A stretch of 64,000 nucleotides of DNA. Source: an uncultured Candidatus Binatia bacterium. GTDB lineage: Bacteria > Desulfobacterota > Binatia > HRBIN30. Below, in pieces: positions 7,426-58,443 of this stretch. How positions within the stretch are numbered: the stretch's first letter is position 1; the number at the start of each line of letters is the position of its first letter. The stretch spans positions 140,243 through 204,242 of the forward strand of contig CAZHQG010000002.1 of assembly GCA_964534275.1 (NCBI GenBank), written 5' to 3'. Both the position numbers and the translations under genes were made by a program. A model generated the notes under the pieces. It was given only the letters and a program-made list of their open reading frames with translations. It did no database searches and was not told the DNA's origin.

Positions 7426-9786
7426 ATGACCAGGGTTCTGGACGAAGCGCTCTTGCAGAGAATCGATGCGTACTGGAGGGCGGCGAATTACCTCACCGTC
7501 GGCCAAATTTATTTGCTCGACAACCCTTTGTTGCGGGAACCCTTGCGGCCCGAGCACATTAAACCTCGCCTCCTAGGCCATTGGGGCACTTCGCCTGGGC
7601 TCACGTTCATTTACACGCATCTGAATCGAGCAATCGTCGCTCACGACCTGAACATGATGTACGTCATCGGGCCTGGCCATGGGGGGCCGGCGATCATCGC
7701 CCACACGTATCTCGAGGGAACGTACAGCGAGTTGTACCCCGACGTTGCCCAAGACGAGGAAGGGCTGCGGCGCTTGTTCAAGCAGTTTTCTTTCCCGGGA
7801 GGGGTCCCGAGCCACGTCGCTCCGGAAGTACCAGGGTCCATCCACGAAGGCGGTGAACTGGGTTATTCCCTTGCGCACGCCTTTGGTGCCGCTTTCGACA
7901 ATCCCGACCTGATCGTGGCTTGTGTGGTAGGTGACGGCGAAGCGGAAACCGGCCCGCTGGCAACGAGCTGGCACTCGAACAAGTTCCTGAATCCTGTGTG
8001 CGACGGGGCCGTGTTGCCGATTTTGCATTTGAACGGGTACAAAATCGCCGGGCCCACGGTCTTAGCCCGAATCCCGCGCGAAGAGCTGGAGTCGCTCCTG
8101 CGCGGCTATGGATACGCGCCGCGCTTTGTCACAGGCTCGGATCCTCCCACGATGCACGAAGCGATGGCCCAAGCTCTAGAGTGGGCAATCGCGAGGATCC
8201 GAGAAATCCAAGAGCGTGCACGCGGCGAGGGGGACTCGGCACGGCCGATTTGGCCGATGATCGTGCTGGAAACCCCGAAGGGCTGGACCGGACCGAAGGC
8301 CGTCGACGGCAAACCGGTGGAAGGTTCGTTTCGCTCCCACCAAGTGCCCCTGTCGCGCGTGCGCGAAGACCCGGAACAGCTTCGCGCTCTGGAGGCTTGG
8401 TTGCGAAGCTACCGGCCTGAGGAGCTGTTCGACGACCGCGGGCGACTGCGGCCGGAGCTACGCGCCCTCGCCCCAAAAGGAGAACGGCGAATGAGCGCCA
8501 ACCCCCACGCCAACGGCGGGGTGCTGTTGCGCGACTTGCGTTTGCCAGACTTTCGCGAGTACGCCGTCCCCGTGCCGCAGCCCGGGGGCACGGTTGCAGA
8601 GGCCACGCGCGTACAAGGTGCATTCATCCGCGATGTGCTCCGGCTCAACGCCGAAGCGCGGAACTTTCGTGTGTTCAGTCCGGACGAAACCACGTCGAAT
8701 CGCTGGAACGACGTATTCGAAGTGACGAGCCGTTGCTCGGTTGCCGCCATCGAGCCGCATGACGAGGCGGTCGCACCCACAGGGCGCGTGATGGAAATGC
8801 TGAGCGAACACCAGTGCCAGGGATGGCTCGAGGGCTACTTGCTCACAGGCCGTCACGGCTTCTTCAACTGTTACGAGGCGTTCATCCACATCGTCGATTC
8901 CATGTTCAACCAGCACGCAAAGTGGCTCAAGGTTGCCCGCCACATTCCTTGGCGCAGACCCATTGCCGCGCTGAACTACTTGCTCACGTCACACGTGTGG
9001 CGGCAAGACCACAACGGCTTCACCCACCAAGATCCGGGCTTCCTCGACATCGTCGTCAACAAAAAGGCGGAACTGATTCGGGTGTACTTGCCGCCAGACG
9101 CCAACACGCTCTTGTACGTGACCGACAAGTGCCTGCGCAGCCGCGACTGCATCAACGTGATCGTTGCCGGCAAGCAACCAGCACCGCAGTGGTTCGATAT
9201 GGATGCCGCAATCAAGCACTGCTCTTCCGGAATCGGGATCCTCCCGTGGGCAAGCAACGACGAAGGGAGCGAGCCCGACGTCGTGCTTGCCTGCTGCGGC
9301 GACGTACCGACGCTTGAAACACTGGGCGCGGCTTGGCTCTTGCGCCGCTTTATGCCGGAACTCAAGGTGCGCGTGATCAACGTGGTGGACCTCATGACTC
9401 TGCAACCTCGCAGCGAGCACCCGCACGGGCTGACCGATGCGCAGTTCGACGTGCTGTTTACCACCAACAAGCCCATCATCTTTGCCTTCCACGGCTACCC
9501 CTGGCTGATTCATCGCCTGGCATACCGCCGCAGAAATCACCCGAATTTGCATGTGCGCGGCTACAAGGAGGAAGGCTCGACCACGACGCCCTTCGACATG
9601 TGCGTACGGAACGACCTCGACCGTTTCCACTTGGTGGAAGACGTCATCGATCGAGTGCCCTTCCTCGGAGCACGGAAAGCCTACGTAAAACAAGCGATTC
9701 GCGACAAGCTCGTCGAACACCGCGAGTACATCACGAAATACGGCGACGACTTGCCCGAAATTCGGGACTGGAAGTGGTCGGCTTAA
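7426..9786 (+). CDS. xfp: Xylulose-5-phosphate/fructose-6-phosphate phosphoketolase
   Basis: 786 aa with a TPP-dependent phosphoketolase signature ([20 protein letters not shown]...GDGEAETG). The RBS GGAGGTG lies 5 nt upstream of the ATG. Confidence 0.95.
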
Positions 9787-9845
9787 TGCAAGGGACGAGC
9801 AGCTAGCCCCTTGGGCGCGGGAGTCGCCGACACAGGAGGAACAAG

Positions 9846-11507
9846 ATGCCTGGAAGCCAGAGAATGGAGAGCCCTCGGCCAATCGAAGAAGTGGCCGCGG
9901 ATCTGGGATTGGATGCCAGTGATTTGATGGTCTTTGGTCGGCAAATGGCGAAGGTCGAAGCACACGCCCTCGAGCGCGGTCGGCGTCGTCCGGAAGAGCC
10001 TCGCCTCGTCTTGGTGTCGGGAATTACTCCCACTGCGGCGGGCGAAGGAAAAACGACCGTGAGTATTGGACTTGCCGACGCATTTCGTTTGCTGGACAAG
10101 TCTGTGTGCCTTGCGCTCCGGGAGCCTTCGCTCGGACCATGCTTTGGGGTGAAGGGCGGGGGTACAGGAGGTGGTGCAGCGAGCTTGGTGCCGGCAGATC
10201 GCATCAACCTCCACTTTACCGGGGATTTTCACGCGGTCACGGCTGCCCACAACTTGCTTGCTGCGATGGTGGACAACCACGTGTACTTCGGGAACCCGCT
10301 TGGCATCGATCCGCGGCGGGTTACCTGGAAGCGCGTGCTGGACATGAACGATCGCAGCTTGCGTTTCATCGTTACGGGGTTGGGCGGACCAGCCCACGGC
10401 GTTCCACGCGAGGCAGGGTTCGACATCACGGCGGCGTCGGAAGTGATGGCCATGTTGTGTCTGGCGCGGGACGCCGAAGATTTGCGTCAGCGGATCGACC
10501 GCACGCTGGTTGGCTTCACGTACGATGGCGCACCAGTGACCGCCGGCCAGATCCAAGCCACTGGAGCGATGCTGGCATTGCTTCGCGACGCGTTGCTCCC
10601 GAACCTCGTGCAAACACAGGCAGGAACGCCAGCGCTGGTCCATGGCGGGCCGTTCGCCAACATCGCCCACGGCTGCAACAGCATCATCGCGACGCGGCTG
10701 GCGCTCGATTGCGCCGACTGGGTCATCACCGAGGCGGGTTTCGCCTTCGATCTCGGGGCGGAGAAATTCTTCGACATCAAATGTGTCACCGCCGGGTTCG
10801 ATACGGCGGCCGTGGTGCTGGTGACGACCGTGCGGGCGTTAAAACAACACGGAGGCGTAGCGGCAGCAGACCTCGCTCGGCCGAACCCAGCGGCAGTTGC
10901 CAGGGGCTTGCCGAATCTCGACAAGCACGTGGAAAATATCCGCGTGTTTGGCGAGCCTCCTGTGGTGGCGGTCAACCGATTCACGACGGACACCGAAGAG
11001 GAAATCGAGGTCGTACGGCGCCGCTGCGCGGCCCTGGGCGTCCCCATGGCGATCGCCCAACCGTTCGACCGCGGGGGCGAGGGTTGCGTGACATTGGCGC
11101 GCACGGTGATGGCGCACGCGGAAAAACGCAGCAAGCGGTTCCAGCCCCTGTACGACTGGAACGATCCGGTGCCGCAAAAAATTCTTCGTGTCGCGCAAGC
11201 GATGTACGGAGCAAAAGGAGTCCAGTACACCAAAGAAGCAGAGCGCGACTTGGCCCTGATTGGCCGCTATGGGTTTGACAAGTTGCCCGTCTGCTTGGCC
11301 AAAACACCGACCTCGCTTTCCGATGACCCAAAACGCTTAGGCCGTCCCGCGGATTTTGACGTGACCGTTCGTTCCATTCAGCCAGCGACGGGTGCGGGCT
11401 TTCTCGTGGTGTTGCTGGGCGACATTTTGCGCATGCCAGGCCTACCAAAGATTCCCTTGGCAACCAGAATCGATTTGCGCGACGGGAAAATCGTCGGGCT
11501 TGCTTGA
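9846..11507 (+). CDS. fhs: Formate--tetrahydrofolate ligase (formyltetrahydrofolate synthetase)
   Basis: 553 aa. The P-loop region VSGITPTAAGEGKTTVSIGL and the conserved FTHFS core are present. An AGGAGG RBS precedes the start. Confidence 0.95.
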   Translation: MPGSQRMESPRPIEEVAADLGLDASDLMVFGRQMAKVEAHALERGRRRPEEPRLVLVSGITPTAAGEGKTTVSIGLADAFRLLDKSVCLALREPSLGPCFGVKGGGTGGGAASLVPADRINLHFTGDFHAVTAAHNLLAAMVDNHVYFGNPLGIDPRRVTWKRVLDMNDRSLRFIVTGLGGPAHGVPREAGFDITAASEVMAMLCLARDAEDLRQRIDRTLVGFTYDGAPVTAGQIQATGAMLALLRDALLPNLVQTQAGTPALVHGGPFANIAHGCNSIIATRLALDCADWVITEAGFAFDLGAEKFFDIKCVTAGFDTAAVVLVTTVRALKQHGGVAAADLARPNPAAVARGLPNLDKHVENIRVFGEPPVVAVNRFTTDTEEEIEVVRRRCAALGVPMAIAQPFDRGGEGCVTLARTVMAHAEKRSKRFQPLYDWNDPVPQKILRVAQAMYGAKGVQYTKEAERDLALIGRYGFDKLPVCLAKTPTSLSDDPKRLGRPADFDVTVRSIQPATGAGFLVVLLGDILRMPGLPKIPLATRIDLRDGKIVGLA

Positions 11508-11536
11508 ACGCTCTGGCTTCGGGCTGGAAGCGAACG

Positions 11537-36569: not shown

Positions 36570-37415
36570 TCACAGGGTGTAGGCGATTCCCAGAGCGATG
36601 CCCCAGTCGGTGGCGGCGTCCGTGCCGCCTACCATTCCGGTGGGCCGGACGATCAAGCGGTCCGAAAAATACATATCCACGCCAGGCCACACCGTGAGGT
36701 CGACGTTGCGGAAGCCGCCTTGGTGGAACACCCGCAACACTGCTTCGCCGCGGAGCGTGTAAAAATCGTTGCCTTTGAGAAACAAAGATAGGCTCGTGTT
36801 GAAGACATCGGGAACATCGCCAGTGAAAAACTGGTATCCCAGGTGGCCACCGAGTCCAATGCGCCCCCAGGTGACCCGACTTGAGACGAACGGGTTCAGT
36901 CCGACCTCGTCCGTACCGAAGTCCTTGCTCTTGCTTCCGGACGGAACGGAAACTTGCACGCCCGCGCCCCAACGCATGATGTCCATCACAGGCTGGGTAA
37001 ACTTGCCGTAAAGTTGGACGTCACCCATGTCTTCTTTGGTGCTCTTTTGGCCAGCGACGGTGCGCGACTCGATGTAACCAGGCAAAAGAAAACCAACTTC
37101 CGCGTTCTTGGACAAACCATAGGACCCGAGCAAATTGAAAATTCCGCCGTCGGTGCTGATTTCCTTTCGGGCAATTGCCGGTGGCTTCGGAATGCGGAAA
37201 CCGATCAAGTTGAACCTTGCCCCCGGATCGTCTTGAACTTTGATCCCTTGGACTTCGAGCCGGAACCGTCCCTCGTCCACCGTGGCTGCATCGATCGTGA
37301 ATGTCCGGAAGGTTCGCTCGTGTCCGGAAAGCTCCACCGCCCGCGCGTGGGATGCCACGGCCATTGCCGCCGCGATCAGCCCGATCCCAATCCTCCGCCT
37401 GATTGCATCACCCAT
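36570..37415 (-). CDS. Outer-membrane beta-barrel protein (MetA-pathway/OmpW-like size class)
   Basis: The signal peptide is MGDAIRRRIGIGLIAAAMAVASHA. Amphipathic beta-strands alternate throughout. The C-terminus has an aromatic residue near the end (GIAYTL). Confidence 0.65.
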   Translation of the reverse strand: MGDAIRRRIGIGLIAAAMAVASHARAVELSGHERTFRTFTIDAATVDEGRFRLEVQGIKVQDDPGARFNLIGFRIPKPPAIARKEISTDGGIFNLLGSYGLSKNAEVGFLLPGYIESRTVAGQKSTKEDMGDVQLYGKFTQPVMDIMRWGAGVQVSVPSGSKSKDFGTDEVGLNPFVSSRVTWGRIGLGGHLGYQFFTGDVPDVFNTSLSLFLKGNDFYTLRGEAVLRVFHQGGFRNVDLTVWPGVDMYFSDRLIVRPTGMVGGTDAATDWGIALGIAYTL

Positions 37416-37886
37416 CGCTTCCCCTCCTTGTCACCTGGGCCGTGAACCCGGAGAGTGTGCTCTCGGACTCCTCGGCCGTTCGATTTGGTTGGCGATGCTA
37501 CGTCGCCGCCCGCGAAAATGTCAAGCGTTGGCTGCCGCTTTGTAGCTGGAACGGGCTCCCGACTCCGCAACGACCACACGGGAAGTATGGGTCCGCCCAC
37601 GAAATCAGGGCACTTGTGACCACGCTGAGCCATCGAACCGGCACCTCGGACCCTGAGTGGTCCCCTTGCAGCAATGGCTCCGGAGCGACCCGTGCGCTGT
37701 AAACGTATTTGTTAGGGCCGGGTCTGCTCGCCGGCCGGCGGTACTGGTGTAGCCATCGTCGTGCCCGTCGAGGCTCGAGACCGCCTGCCGGACGGCGCGG
37801 GCCGGCTCCGTGGATTCGCACCTTCGGGTGGCTGGATCTCTGAGTGTGCTGGAAACGAAGCTCGCGAGAGGAGCGGCCGTGCAGCG

Positions 37887-39119
37887 TCACTCTGGGGCTC
37901 CAAGCCAGTACGAGGGAATGACCACAATGTTCTTGTTCGCTGCGGCTCGCGCCACTTTCGGGTCCACGGTGTAGGAGACCACGAAAACAAAACGATTTGC
38001 ACCGACGAAACCGTATTTTTCCAGTCGCTGCAAACGCTTTTCGAGTTTCGTTAAGTGTTTGAGTCCCAAACGTGCCTTGGCTTCGCCAACCACCGTGACC
38101 GTTTGCCCGTTTTGTACGGCAGTGCCGAAAATGTTCAATTCCTCTGCTCCGCCATCCGGATACTCTACCCATTTTCGCTCCAGTGCACCCTGGACCTCGA
38201 GACCGAAATGCTTTCGAAGCACTTTCGGTAAACGGAAAATGGCACGGTCCTCCAGGCCGTAGCCCACGGCGTCCGACAAGTTGGCAAGCATTTCACGTGT
38301 TTGCCGATGGTCGCGCACAAGCGCCTGCACTTGTTTGGTGAGTTGGCGAAGTTCCTGCTGCGTTTGCCGGTGCGATTCGGTGAGTTCCTTTAGGCTGCGC
38401 TGGGTTTCCTCCATCGCGGCAGTGAGCGCTGCAAAGCGGAGATCTGTCGCGTTGCGGAATTCGCAATACTCTTGATAGGCGCGCTCCTGGGCTGCCGTGA
38501 GTTCGGCGAAACGCTGGTTGGCGACTCTGCGGAACTCGGAGAATTCTTGGTATGCACGTTCCTGGGCGGCGGTGAGGCTAGCGACTGCGGCCTCGGTGCG
38601 TTGCTGGGCAGCAGCGAGTTCGGCGAAGCGCTGGTCTGTTGAGGCACGAAGCTGGGCAAGCTCTTCCCCCGTGCGCTGCTGGGCTGCAGCAAGTTCGGCG
38701 AAGCGCTGGTCAACGACTGTGCGGAACTCGGAGAATTCTTGGTATGCGCGTTCCTGGGCGGCGGTGAGGCTAGCGACTGCGGCTTCGGTGCGCTGCTGGG
38801 CAGCGGCAAGCTCTTGTACTCGGTGTTCGGTTCGGGCTTGCGCGTCGGCGAGAAGTGCGAAGCGTTGGTCGACGTGACGGCGGAGTTCCACCAGCTCGTG
38901 TTCGACACGTTCCTTCAATCGCTCGTCGGTGCGTTGCTGGGCTTCCGCAAGATCACGCAGGGCGTCACGCAGTTCTGCAAACTCAGCCTTGGTCACTTGG
39001 TCGCGCATCTCGTCGTAAAGGGTGGCCAGTGCGCGTACCAACACCGCGGCGGTATCCGGATCGAGGCTCCGGCCCGCTACGGCACTGAGTTCGGCAAGTG
39101 TGGATGCAAAGGTAGCCAC
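37887..39119 (-). CDS. Coiled-coil repeat protein with C-terminal PD-(D/E)XK-like (DUF3782-like) domain
   Basis: 410 aa. The N-terminal two-thirds consist of repeated heptad modules (FAELAAAQQRTEAAVASLTAAQERAYQEFSEFR occurs twice, plus diverged copies). The C-terminal ~130 aa read YPDGGAEELNIFG...VTVVGEAKARL, consistent with a restriction-endonuclease-like D...E.K arrangement. Confidence 0.7.
   Translation of the reverse strand: MATFASTLAELSAVAGRSLDPDTAAVLVRALATLYDEMRDQVTKAEFAELRDALRDLAEAQQRTDERLKERVEHELVELRRHVDQRFALLADAQARTEHRVQELAAAQQRTEAAVASLTAAQERAYQEFSEFRTVVDQRFAELAAAQQRTGEELAQLRASTDQRFAELAAAQQRTEAAVASLTAAQERAYQEFSEFRRVANQRFAELTAAQERAYQEYCEFRNATDLRFAALTAAMEETQRSLKELTESHRQTQQELRQLTKQVQALVRDHRQTREMLANLSDAVGYGLEDRAIFRLPKVLRKHFGLEVQGALERKWVEYPDGGAEELNIFGTAVQNGQTVTVVGEAKARLGLKHLTKLEKRLQRLEKYGFVGANRFVFVVSYTVDPKVARAAANKNIVVIPSYWLGAPE
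38461..38830. repeat. Intragenic tandem direct repeats (~180-bp period)
   Basis: Two ~100-bp copies at 38527-38632 and 38708-38806 are >90% identical (ggaactcggagaattcttggtatgcRcgttcctgggcggcggtgaggctagcgactgcggcYtcggtgcgYtgctgggcagc...). A diverged third copy lies at 38461-38525. Confidence 0.85.
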
Positions 39120-39329
39120 GTGGTCTTGTATAACCCAAATCGGCGACTTTGCCGACCCGTCCTTTACAACCGTAGAAACAGTGATCCGTCACGCACCACG
39201 GGCGGTGCAGTGGGCGTTGTGCGCGCAGGGGCTATCGGTTCATCTTTCCCCGATCTGGGTTTTTGCACACCAGAGATGTGTCCCGCTGTAGCGACGAGTG
39301 GCCACCGATGCGCAGCCATCAAACGGCCG

Positions 39330-39357
39330 CGTATCGTTCCCCACACGCGTGGGGATA
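39330..39357. promoter_or_regulatory. Bulged inverted repeat GTATC-gtt-CCCCAC-acgc-GTGGGG-ATAC; candidate operator or RNA hairpin upstream of the coiled-coil gene
   Basis: Seen directly at 39330-39357 within a 450-bp gene-free spacer between the recN stop and the coiled-coil gene start. Confidence 0.3.
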
Positions 39358-39568
39358 CAAGAGTGTTGGCCGGGCAAGACGCCCGCGCTCCTAGGCCATT
39401 CCACCACTGGTTCCCGTGGCAATGCAGCGGTTCCGGCCGTCGCCCGTGTCCAGAACCCCAAGATGTGGGACGTGATGAGGGCTGTCCGTGAGGGAAACGA
39501 GGAATGGGCCTAGACCGCTGGGGGCCGTTGGTGTCGCCTTTCGGCGACAAGCGCCGACGCGTGAGACC

Positions 39569-41272
39569 TCACGACGGCTTGAGTGCCGCCAGCAGTTCGC
39601 GTGCGTAGCGTTCCGACTCGGTCCCAGTGCTGCCCAGCATGCGGGCCAGTTCGCGGACGCGTTCTTGCCCGGCGACGGCCCTTGCCCGGGTGTACGTCCG
39701 TCCGTTGCGCACGTTCTTTTCTACCGCCAGGTGGCAGTCGGCAAATGCCGCAATTTGGGGCAAATGCGTGATGCAAAGAATTTGCTGCTGGCGTGCCAAC
39801 GCGTGCAGGCGCTTGCCCACCGCCGTAGCCGTGGCGCCGCCAATGCCGGCATCCACTTCGTCGAAGAGCCACAACGCAGCACTGCGAGCGGCCCCAGTGA
39901 GTACTTTGAGGGCCAACATGACGCGCGACAGCTCGCCACCCGAGGCAATGCGAGCCAGCGGTCGCGCAGCTTCTCCCGGGTTTGCACACCAAAGGAACTC
40001 CACCGCATCGGCCCCAGTGTAATCAAAAACCCCCGATTCCTGTTCTGCCAGCTCGTGCTCCGCCGCTCGGGCCAGCTCTTCGGTCCCCTTGCGGCGAAAC
40101 TCCACTTGCAAGGCAGCTTCTCGCATGCCGAGGGCGCGGAGTTCCTGGCGCACCCGGGTTGCCAGGTCTTGCGCCGCCCGTTGGCGTGCTTGCGACAGTG
40201 CGTGCGCGATTTCCCGCACTTGGGCGAAGCTCCGATGCAGCTCTTCTCGCAGTGCTTGTGGGTCCGGCGTCGTCTCCTGCAACGCTTCTAGTTCGCGTTC
40301 CAGTTCTTCGAGCCGATCCGGTAAATCGTCCGCTTCACATCCATACTTGCGCGCGAGGCGGCTGAGAAGCGCGAGGCGGTCTTCTACCGCGGCAAAGCGC
40401 TCGGGGTCGAACTCCAGGCGGTCGAGATACCGGCGCAGTTGAAACGCCGCTTCGCTCATCAGCGTTCGCGCTTGGTGGACAAGGTCGACAGTCGCGGTGA
40501 GTTCTGGATCGATGCGGGCTGCTTCGCCAAGCGCGTGCGTGATTCGCGTGGCCAGGTCGACCACGTTCGTTTCCGCCGACTCCAGTGCCGCCTCGCTTTC
40601 GCCGCACAATCGCTGCAGTTTTTCCACGTGCCGGAGCTTCTCTCGCTCTGCCTGCAGTTGTGTGTGTTCTCCGGGGACGAGACGCGCTTGTTGCAACTCG
40701 GCAACTTGGAAGTGCAACAGTTCCATCCGGCCCTGCACGGTTCCGGCACTGTCGAGCGCTTGCCGCCACCGGCGGTACGCCGCCTGCCACGCAGAGTACG
40801 CCTGTTCCATTTCGGCGCGCCGTGCTTGCAGGCCGGCGAACTCGTCGAGAAGGTCCAAGTGGGTTTCCGGACGCAGCAGCGCTGTTTGTTCGTGTTGCCC
40901 ATAGATGTGCACCAAAGACGCGCCCAGTTCGGCAAGTTGCGTCGAGGAAACCGCGGAGCCATTCACCCACGCGCGGCTGCGCCCAGTACGCGAGAACACC
41001 CGACGCACAACGACTTCGCTGGCGCCGGGCAAGCCCTGACGGTCGAGCCACTCTGGAGCCACGTCCTCGAACAAGGCCTCCACGCTGGCTTCGTCGCTGT
41101 CGGTGCGAATCAAGTCTGCCGAGGCGCGGCCTCCGCACAGTAACGCGAGGGCCCGGACGATCACGCTCTTGCCGGCGCCGGTCTCGCCGGTGAGCACGTT
41201 CAGGCCGGGCGCGAGCTCCAGTTCGAGCTCGTCGATGACCGCCATTTGTCGAATTGCAAGGTGTCGCAGCAT
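39569..41272 (-). CDS. recN: DNA repair protein RecN (SMC-like ATPase)
   Basis: The Walker A motif LTGETGAGKS, a long coiled coil, and the C-terminal signature and Walker B motifs (GGELSRVMLAL, LWLFDEVDAGIGG) are present. Confidence 0.95.
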   Translation of the reverse strand: MLRHLAIRQMAVIDELELELAPGLNVLTGETGAGKSVIVRALALLCGGRASADLIRTDSDEASVEALFEDVAPEWLDRQGLPGASEVVVRRVFSRTGRSRAWVNGSAVSSTQLAELGASLVHIYGQHEQTALLRPETHLDLLDEFAGLQARRAEMEQAYSAWQAAYRRWRQALDSAGTVQGRMELLHFQVAELQQARLVPGEHTQLQAEREKLRHVEKLQRLCGESEAALESAETNVVDLATRITHALGEAARIDPELTATVDLVHQARTLMSEAAFQLRRYLDRLEFDPERFAAVEDRLALLSRLARKYGCEADDLPDRLEELERELEALQETTPDPQALREELHRSFAQVREIAHALSQARQRAAQDLATRVRQELRALGMREAALQVEFRRKGTEELARAAEHELAEQESGVFDYTGADAVEFLWCANPGEAARPLARIASGGELSRVMLALKVLTGAARSAALWLFDEVDAGIGGATATAVGKRLHALARQQQILCITHLPQIAAFADCHLAVEKNVRNGRTYTRARAVAGQERVRELARMLGSTGTESERYARELLAALKPS

Positions 41273-58354: not shown

Positions 58355-58443
58355 CGGAGAGGGAGGGATTCGAACCCTCGGTAGAGTTTTAGCCCTACAC
58401 ACGCTTAGCAGGCGTGCGCCTTCGACCTCTCGGCCACCTCTCC
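58355..58443 (-). tRNA. tRNA-Ser (anticodon GCU), type II with long variable arm; CCA not encoded
   Basis: The reverse complement reads GGAGAGGTGGCCGAGAGGTCGAAGGCGCACGCCTGCTAAGCGTGTGTAGGGCTAAAACTCTACCGAGGGTTCGAATCCCTCCCTCTCCG. The acceptor stem is 7 bp. The anticodon loop is CTGCTAA. The T-loop is GGTTCGAATCC. Confidence 0.85.

Follow-up and report, generated by a model that had tools for sequence, protein, structure and literature searches.

Prokaryotic proteins in which a coiled coil is followed by a PD-(D/E)XK domain (COG5493, DUF1626, DUF3782) have been listed as predicted nucleases since 2007 and are still uncharacterised. DUF1626/COG5493 was described as a predicted PD-(D/E)XK domain preceded by a coiled coil, uncharacterised in function and patchy in distribution (PMC1913061, PMC3424549), and multiple horizontal transfers were noted for DUF1626 (PMC3424549). 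Some members of PDDEXK_10 have lost the lysine of motif III (PMC1913061), and DUF3782 has been described as the coiled-coil stalk of a prokaryotic endonuclease family (PMC4786415). Variation of coiled-coil length is known from the HsdS subunit of restriction enzymes, where in-frame changes in the copy number of TAEL repeats, arising via unequal crossing-over, alter the geometry of a DNA-acting complex and the specificity of EcoR124I/II (PMC3874165). Here we describe a gene on the minus strand of a 64,000-nucleotide (nt) stretch of DNA, the window, from an uncultured Candidatus Binatia bacterium. It encodes a protein of 410 amino acids (aa) with an N-terminal head, a coiled-coil stalk built from repeated modules and a C-terminal domain of predicted nuclease fold. 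This kind of predicted coiled-coil nuclease is already known; the feature worth pursuing is the length of the stalk, which is hypervariable at three levels, among near-identical strains, among sister genes and among tandem paralogs of one genome.

Repeat modules and length alleles of the stalk

A repeat search of the window revealed a direct repeat of 192 nt (38416-38607 vs 38608-38799) with 79% identity and a 29-nt repeat family with six copies, both within the gene. When in-frame stretches of 90 nt were compared, identities of at least 85% occurred at an offset of 192 nt only, with a maximum of 95.6%, and codon-shuffled genes used as a control gave 53% at best. Cutting the protein at the recurrent ...DQRFA|EL... 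boundary resulted in five modules, A, B, C, B' and D in the order of the protein (Table 1). Modules B and B', of 39 codons each, are alike at 106 of 117 nt (90.6%), and 7 of their 11 differences are synonymous. Module B is itself composed of two units, one of 14 aa (ELAAAQQRTEAAVA) and after it one of 25 aa; module C is an additional 25-codon relative, and D agrees with the second half of B at 50 of 75 nt. Tandem Repeats Finder gave no reports because the repeat is interspersed and modular and not strictly head-to-tail. The first-pass annotation of this DNA had proposed segments of about 100 bp, repeated with more than 90% identity at a period of about 180 bp and accompanied by a diverged third copy, as the origin of reiterated coiled-coil modules. 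The repeats themselves are present, the peptide that it quoted is found in the protein, the reiterated coiled-coil stalk is supported and the diverged third copy corresponds to module D. The period, however, is 192 nt, and the pair placed at 38527-38632 and 38708-38806 is about 11 nt out of register; the true partner of the former starts at 38719 and shows 86.8% identity over 106 nt.

The number of these modules differs between members of the same species. Alleles were taken from syntenic metagenome contigs carrying the order NAD kinase, recN, the nuclease gene, a gene for a 281-aa protein, truA, asd, leuB and leuA, on which the neighbouring proteins are 97.7-100% identical and the non-repeat flanks of the gene 97.8-100% identical. 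At least seven alleles were observed, with lengths of 346 aa (AB'D; L003, L066, P0131 and P0005), 371 aa (ACB'D; L004-L007, each assembled independently), 385 aa (ABB'D; L002), 410 aa (ABCB'D; the window), 424 aa (ABBB'D; L001), 463 aa (ABBBB'D; L067) and at least 488 aa (...BCBBB'D; L068, partial). A protein identical to that of the window over all 410 aa is present in a public collection (P0114). The repeat units of 42, 75, 117 and 192 nt are all divisible by 3, and every length change is in frame and falls at module boundaries. An on/off phase-variable contingency locus was rejected, since units divisible by 3 result in length variation instead of switching.

The origin of one allele can be followed at the nucleotide level. 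In its flanks the 371-aa allele differs from the window at 0 of 258 and 2 of 540 nt, yet it is 117 nt shorter, and its module C opens with the sequence that in the window stands at the 5' end of module B. This recombinant junction is the product that would be expected of a crossover inside the shared repeat coding for ELAAAQQRT. The earlier suggestion that the repeats are recombinogenic and alter protein length is thus corroborated by an in-frame allelic series in which repeat number is not invariant among related genomes. Judged by the contigs compared, protein length evolves far more rapidly than the remainder of the genome. The ratio of nonsynonymous to synonymous polymorphism (pN/pS) over the last 180 codons (37890-38429), compared with L001 and L002, was 0.64-0.97. 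Values for NAD kinase, recN, truA and the 281-aa protein were 0-0.38. The higher values come from tiny counts (8-9 nonsynonymous and 3-4 synonymous changes, 11-13 substitutions).

Variation of the same kind was found across the family. The sister gene P0007, 53% identical, has its 14-aa repeat (LAEAQRRTEERVNE) in 5, 2 or 7 copies, and beside this group identity is 98.6-100% for the proteins ImuA, ImuB and DnaE2 and 99.6% for the DNA between the genes. On a long-read contig of 5.06 Mb (L065), four tandem paralogs at 8339-11530, with DNA 97-100% identical outside the repeats, contain 5, 2, 4 and 3 copies of a 42-nt unit and encode proteins of 253, 211, 239 and 225 aa, no two of which are equal. 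Near-exact tandem repeats of the stalk are present in 102 of 145 subfamily representatives, mostly with a period of 14, 7 or 21. Several copies of the family can occur in one genome, and its distribution is patchy across phyla. Upstream of the first L065 paralog, at 7782-8336, lies a separate short tandem repeat of about 5 copies that reads RRVLRPTVA and LGAILYAPL on opposite strands.

The predicted C-terminal nuclease domain and its family

The C-terminal part of the protein (residues 262-410) was modelled by AlphaFold2 (AF2) from a 70-sequence alignment with a predicted local distance difference test score (pLDDT) of 92.1. The model consists of a long helix and three strands, followed by two helix-strand pairs, and Foldseek agrees with this topology. 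Among solved structures the repair nuclease NucS comes closest in fold; further structural neighbours are the effector nucleases Can2, Card1, Cap4, NucC, Shedu and HamA as well as restriction enzymes. A sequence profile search of the PDB gave marginal matches alone, to NucC (E 0.019), NucS and BbvCI, and a fold search of BFVD generic PD-(D/E)XK matches alone. In the model E290 is located in helix alpha-1, and E327 and E346-A-K348 in strands beta-2 and beta-3. E346 is at least 90% conserved over 57-70 homologs, the E346-A347-K348 triad is invariant among closer homologs, and E290, E327, E346 and K348 are all kept in the subfamily over a range of 27-68% identity. The nuclease domain is also the most conserved portion of the protein. 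We therefore attribute to it a complete E...E...ExK variant of the PD-(D/E)XK site, metal-dependent by prediction, in what the model presents as a minimal NucS/Hjc-like domain at the C-terminal tip, and infer a nuclease activity on DNA. The PD-(D/E)XK-like domain suspected at first reading is in agreement with both the AF2 fold and the catalytic signature. Membership of NucS/EndoMS itself was rejected: the N-terminal 305 residues form a helical head and stalk, only the nuclease core aligns (12% identity), and Pfam NucS_C matched neither the full protein nor the isolated domain.

Relatives provided the connection to described families. A full-length search with phmmer resulted in 110 homologs, and three distant ones (P0094, P0100 and P0103) carry both PF12644 (DUF3782) and PF07788 (PDDEXK_10); P0100 is a PDDEXK_10 member without the motif III lysine. 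Individual scans of 70 relatives detected DUF3782 in 29 (E<=0.01) and PDDEXK_10 in 3. Alignment of the nuclease domain with the three Pfam-positive PDDEXK_10 proteins by hhalign gave an E value of 2.6e-5; it spans 118 columns, pairs the catalytic residues and has a template of only 3 sequences. Because relatives match the Pfam models, and given the hhalign result and the literature on DUF1626 and DUF3782, we place the protein in a divergent subfamily within the COG5493-type coiled-coil nucleases, themselves uncharacterised; strictly, the protein is outside both Pfam families. The earlier label of a DUF3782-type protein consequently holds for the wider family and not for the protein itself.

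The subfamily is sizeable. A profile of its nuclease domain matched 1,222 clusters (counted at 50% identity) at E<=1e-3 among 1.84 billion representatives, and in all clusters listed the domain is C-terminal, with an N-terminal extension of varying length ahead of it. The subfamily signature is GGLSDAVGYxLEDRAI...ELNIFG...GEAKA. Current Pfam and NCBIfam hold no model that covers this nuclease domain, and scans with both, of the whole protein as well as of the isolated C-terminal domain, produced coiled-coil noise alone.

Gene layout, head and stalk

The open reading frame (ORF) of the gene begins with a GTG codon. This long start was taken as the real one because the first 25 residues (MATFASTLAELSAVAGRSLDPDTAA) are conserved among homologs with 38-53% identity. 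The head is conserved in P0007, P0008 and P0010. Two further ORFs overlap the repeat region, one of 172 aa in an alternative frame (38390-38908, minus strand) and one of 126 aa in antisense (38497-38877, plus strand); both are repetitive shadows of the coiled-coil repeats. An overlapping ORF of 166 aa was called in L001 and L066, and gene callers may thus pick up shadow ORFs.

In the full-length AF2 model the second stalk helix (161-305) continues unbroken into helix alpha-1 of the nuclease domain, and a helix break at residues 40-43 coincides with the motif QVTKAEF. Pfam, NCBIfam and PADLOC searches gave, for the stalk, generic coiled-coil matches only (SMC, JetC, ZorA and others). QVTKAEF, which occurs once in the protein, resembles the beta-layer consensus [aliphatic]-A-T-K-[polar]-[DE] and the sequence FVTKTEFKEF of MPN010 (PMC4786415), but has V at the position of the consensus A. 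Every construct forming beta-layers crystallised as a trimer (PMC4786415), and the stalk may possibly be a parallel homotrimer. More weight attaches to the length indels, which are single and uncompensated. Chains in parallel register would all change alike, whereas an antiparallel hairpin of the SMC/Rad50 type is disfavoured because it would not tolerate uncompensated indels. The stalk, of about 260 residues, is therefore presumed to form a homo-oligomeric coiled coil that is parallel and in register.

Table 1. Position and properties of the gene, its repeat modules and the predicted parts of its protein (window coordinates)
Feature	Position	Strand	Properties
Whole gene	37887..39119	(-)	410 aa; from N- to C-terminus head, coiled-coil stalk, nuclease domain; stop codon 37887-37889
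N-terminal head	39003..39119	(-)	Residues 1-39; two short predicted helices, H2-18 and H21-39 (full-length AF2)
QVTKAEF motif	38979..38999	(-)	Residues 41-47, beta-layer-like, start of stalk; V42, T43, K44 and E46 invariant in 10 homologs
Coiled-coil stalk	38205..38990	(-)	Residues 44-305, predicted, ~39 nm fully extended; AF2 helices H44-149 and H161-305
Module A	38814..38861	(-)	16 aa, FALLADAQARTEHRVQ; in every allele
Module B	38697..38813	(-)	39 aa, ELAAAQQRTEAAVASLTAAQERAYQEFSEFRTVVDQRFA; zero to three extra copies per complete allele besides the constant B'
Module C	38622..38696	(-)	25 aa, ELAAAQQRTGEELAQLRASTDQRFA; variably present among alleles; low pLDDT in AF2 model
Module B'	38505..38621	(-)	39 aa, ...FRRVANQRFA; final B-type copy, in every allele
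Module D	38430..38504	(-)	25 aa, ELTAAQERAYQEYCEFRNATDLRFA; diverged copy of second half of B; in every allele
C-terminal nuclease domain	37890..38273	(-)	
E290 (GYGLEDRAI)	38250..38252	(-)	Predicted motif I metal-binding glutamate, helix alpha-1; sole invariant column in 57- and 70-sequence alignments
E327 (EELNIFG)	38139..38141	(-)	Predicted motif II acidic residue, start of strand beta-2; >=90% conserved; aligns to D/E of PDDEXK_10 proteins
E346-A347-K348 (VVGEAKA)	38076..38084	(-)	Predicted motif III (D/E)xK, strand beta-3; aligns to E-I-K of PDDEXK_10 proteins

Genomic context

Upstream of the gene and on the same strand lies recN (39569-41272, minus strand), separated from it by about 450 nt (39120-39568). 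A functional link with recN had been hinted at on the grounds of this position. Within 10 kb, recN is present in the same-species loci L001-L004 and in none of 55 distant loci (L008-L062), which come from Acidobacteriota, Desulfobacterota, Nitrospirota, Chloroflexota, Omnitrophota and other phyla. RecN, NAD kinase and the outer-membrane-like protein of the window were also used as tblastn queries against 62 loci and matched the same-species contigs alone. The hint is not sustained by these loci, and the protein is probably not a dedicated partner of RecN. The genes imuA, imuB and dnaE2 are likewise absent within 10 kb from all 55 distant loci and were found beside the P0007 group only, which adjoins imuA-imuB-dnaE2 downstream with a gap of 835-890 nt (L063 856-8246, L074 1132-8378 and L075 933-8179). 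A module linked to recN or to the DNA-damage (SOS) response by conserved neighbourhood was rejected, as recN is confined to same-species loci and the imu genes to the P0007 group. In sample ERZ511474 the coverage of the P0007-group contig and of the recN-linked contig was 13.0 and 12.9, respectively, with similar GC content, and the two genes may be paralogs in one genome, each beside SOS-type genes.

All-against-all clustering of ORFs within 6 kb at 60 loci did not yield a conserved partner gene, no family being common to more than 4 loci; the families that recur are housekeeping or exopolysaccharide genes of related Deltaproteobacteria. A mobile-element origin was rejected, since relatives were not found in phage records, plasmid records or IMG/VR and the GC content of the gene is not atypical.

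The non-coding gaps that flank the gene are unusually long, 449 nt upstream (39120-39568) and 471 nt downstream (37416-37886), and contain no Rfam family, terminator or shared motif; Rfam, promoter and terminator scans around the gene gave nothing relevant. Strains share about 96% identity in the upstream gap, where small indels occur. Downstream of the gene, the 281-aa protein (36570-37415, minus strand) is 98.8-100% identical among strains, has no Pfam match on record and looks like a small outer-membrane beta-barrel. Its gene is preceded by a promoter-like site, TTGACA-18-TAGCAT (37524-37495, minus strand). The sole Rfam match in the window is an 89-nt tRNA at 58355-58443 (minus strand), presumably of the long-variable-arm type by its length.

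Possible function of the protein and of its variable stalk

With somewhat better than even confidence, we regard the protein as a stand-alone chromosomal fibrous endonuclease, by prediction, with a head, a length-variable stalk and a C-terminal PD-(D/E)XK domain, that would serve as a conflict or DNA-processing factor. The stalk is made up of coding modules, 14, 25 and 39 codons long, that arose by recent duplication and have near-identical stretches of about 26-30 nt in common (encoding DQRFAEL-AAAQQRT). Unequal recombination or replication slippage between these stretches leads to gain or loss of whole modules in frame. The alleles of the population, from 346 to at least 488 aa, correspond to stalks of roughly 29-50 nm between a head and a nuclease domain that stay nearly constant. 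A role as a self-contained factor against foreign or abnormal DNA appears most likely to us; how far the nuclease heads reach, or how they are spaced, would depend on the length of the stalk, which may be either under diversifying selection or free to drift.

Several observations weigh against parts of this assignment. Pfam models PF12644 and PF07788 gave no match, whether for the full protein (E<=1) or for the C-terminal domain by itself (E<=10). The first-pass annotation had proposed a Pfam search of the C-terminal region as a check; a direct match is missing, which we do not count as a refutation. The hhalign probability of the profile-profile link was only 74.8%. Concerning the stalk, the AF2 monomer has a low-confidence break at residues 150-160, in module C, which leaves a fold-back possible. 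Neither module length, 25 or 39 aa, is divisible by 7, and each indel consequently shifts the heptad phase, which a strict ruler might not tolerate. PD-(D/E)XK nucleases are usually dimers and a trimer would be unusual. The trimer assignment depends on the single N-terminal motif, the strict pattern of which is present in 43 of 145 relatives, and bacterial family members were described as lacking nonad-type periodicities (PMC4786415). Finally, most alleles stem from short-read metagenome assemblies (nearly all from megahit k141, SPAdes or Logan), in which repeat copy number can be mis-assembled, and the exact 42-nt repeats of the P0007 group may collapse. Contigs frequently break off among the repeats; of 9 that were anchored on the downstream gene, 6 stop within the nuclease gene. 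At 55 loci of GTDB species representatives, 12 genes were cut by the contig end at the 5' side and 1 clearly at the 3' side, which is no more than suggestive, since more sequence lies upstream than downstream of the search pattern. Such breaks also count among the signs that repeat variation extends over the family.

These last points would be explained if the length polymorphism were an artefact of short-read repeat assembly, with one true length and neutral coiled-coil repeats. We consider this very unlikely, given that the paralogs with 5, 2, 4 and 3 repeats lie on a long-read 5-Mb contig, that the 371-aa allele is identical in four assemblies of different runs and that JGI, ENA and Logan data each contain the 346-aa allele. 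In addition, the modules can be told apart by 2-17 nt, the variants respect frame and module boundaries, and the junction of the 371-aa allele is cleanly recombinant. Just as little credit is due to a structural or cytoskeletal coiled-coil protein whose nuclease fold is catalytically dead and serves for binding or anchoring only; to us this is the least probable of the explanations. Most of the protein is coiled coil, its database matches include filament-like, tropomyosin-like and SMC-like families, and loss of the motif III lysine is known within PDDEXK_10 (PMC1913061) and seen in P0100. The catalytic residues, however, are retained throughout the subfamily, and it is the nuclease domain and not the stalk that is best conserved.

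Two readings would give the nuclease a more specific task. A defence nuclease against phages or plasmids, with a contingency-type stalk whose length is selected in an arms race and with paralog arrays as sets of lengths, is possible but doubtful. It would agree with the patchy distribution and multiple copies per genome, the horizontal transfers of DUF1626, a repeat number that changes much faster than point substitutions build up, the unequal L065 paralogs, the effector nucleases and restriction enzymes among the structural neighbours, the raised pN/pS of the C-terminal codons and the HsdS precedent. The PDDEXK_10 relative P0103 also matches a PADLOC model over its nuclease domain (E 5e-8). 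For the window protein, on the other hand, PADLOC-DB 2.0 returned matches to coiled-coil regions of ZorA, LmuB and JetC only, all in the stalk and none over the nuclease domain. Its locus and most related loci are situated among housekeeping genes and not in defence islands, a sensor, modification or immunity partner is absent, and GC content and the phage, plasmid and IMG/VR searches give no sign of mobility. A repair or recombination nuclease of the SOS response, expressed upon damage and acting with RecN or the translesion machinery with the stalk as a scaffold, is improbable, and is kept alive as a minority view by the SOS-type neighbours of both genes. The gene directly follows recN on the same strand, its sister directly follows imuA-imuB-dnaE2 on three contigs, both contigs have near-equal coverage in one sample, and NucS is the closest solved fold. 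None of these neighbours is conserved at the distant loci, though, the gaps to the genes upstream are wide, an upstream motif common to the recN-linked and imu-linked genes was not found, and the likeness to NucS concerns a generic nuclease core without the N-terminal DNA-binding domain of NucS.

A bolder extension of our preferred explanation, a self-contained conflict or DNA-processing nuclease, would make stalk length a selected, fast-evolving parameter of an unrecognised class of stand-alone 'ruler' nucleases; this we hold to be unlikely. The oligomeric coiled coil would set the distance or reach from the N-terminal head, acting as an anchor, to the catalytic tips, and length switching together with graded paralog sets, such as the 5/2/4/3 array, would diversify target geometry or evade inhibitors. 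Such a system would be analogous to the switching of TAEL repeats in HsdS at a scale of tens of nanometres and, if real, would constitute a new principle for defence or DNA processing.

Comparison with known systems

If the length of the stalk matters functionally, the alleles represent a natural experiment on how coiled-coil spacers tune a nuclease, and a tractable one, as they differ in module count only. If it is neutral, they provide a clear case of tolerated repeat instability in which a parallel coiled coil is freely lengthened. Repeats that break short-read assemblies at the gene also affect the quality of metagenome-assembled genomes and gene calling throughout the family.

Among proteins with a related nuclease core, the C-terminal domain of NucS/EndoMS (PDB 2vld, 5gke), AF1548, Can2 and Card1 are alike in this core only, with 12-17% identity. 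The window protein has neither the N-terminal DNA-binding domain of NucS nor a PCNA-binding motif or a CARF sensor, and a long coiled coil is fused to the core instead. Nearer in architecture are the DUF1626/PDDEXK_10 and DUF3782 proteins of COG5493 (Crenarchaeota, Chloroflexi, cyanobacteria and others), which combine coiled coil and nuclease and are equally patchy and equally uncharacterised. The stalk of the window differs from theirs in being built of 25- and 39-residue modules where the common unit elsewhere has 14 residues, and its nuclease domain forms a separate subfamily that matches neither Pfam model.

With respect to the stalk, near-identical intragenic tandem repeats that encode coiled coil are also found in streptococcal M proteins, alpha-C proteins and the stalks of trimeric autotransporters. 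Copy number in these repeats varies among strains by recombination. They act at the cell surface as adhesins or antigens and face immune selection, whereas the window protein has a nuclease domain and lacks a signal peptide or anchor. The VTKxEF motif at the start of its stalk resembles a beta-layer as described for trimeric fibres, for alpha/beta coiled coils such as Tcar0761 and for the DUF3782 family (PMC4786415). The closest mechanistic precedent for coiled-coil length as a functional variable remains the TAEL repeat of type IC HsdS, EcoR124I versus EcoR124II. There, the repeat measures 4 aa and belongs to a spacer of two antiparallel helices that separates two DNA-recognition domains in an enzyme of several subunits; in the family described here, in which no recognition domain was recognised, units of 14-64 aa vary within a stalk of 200-340 residues that belongs to a stand-alone protein.

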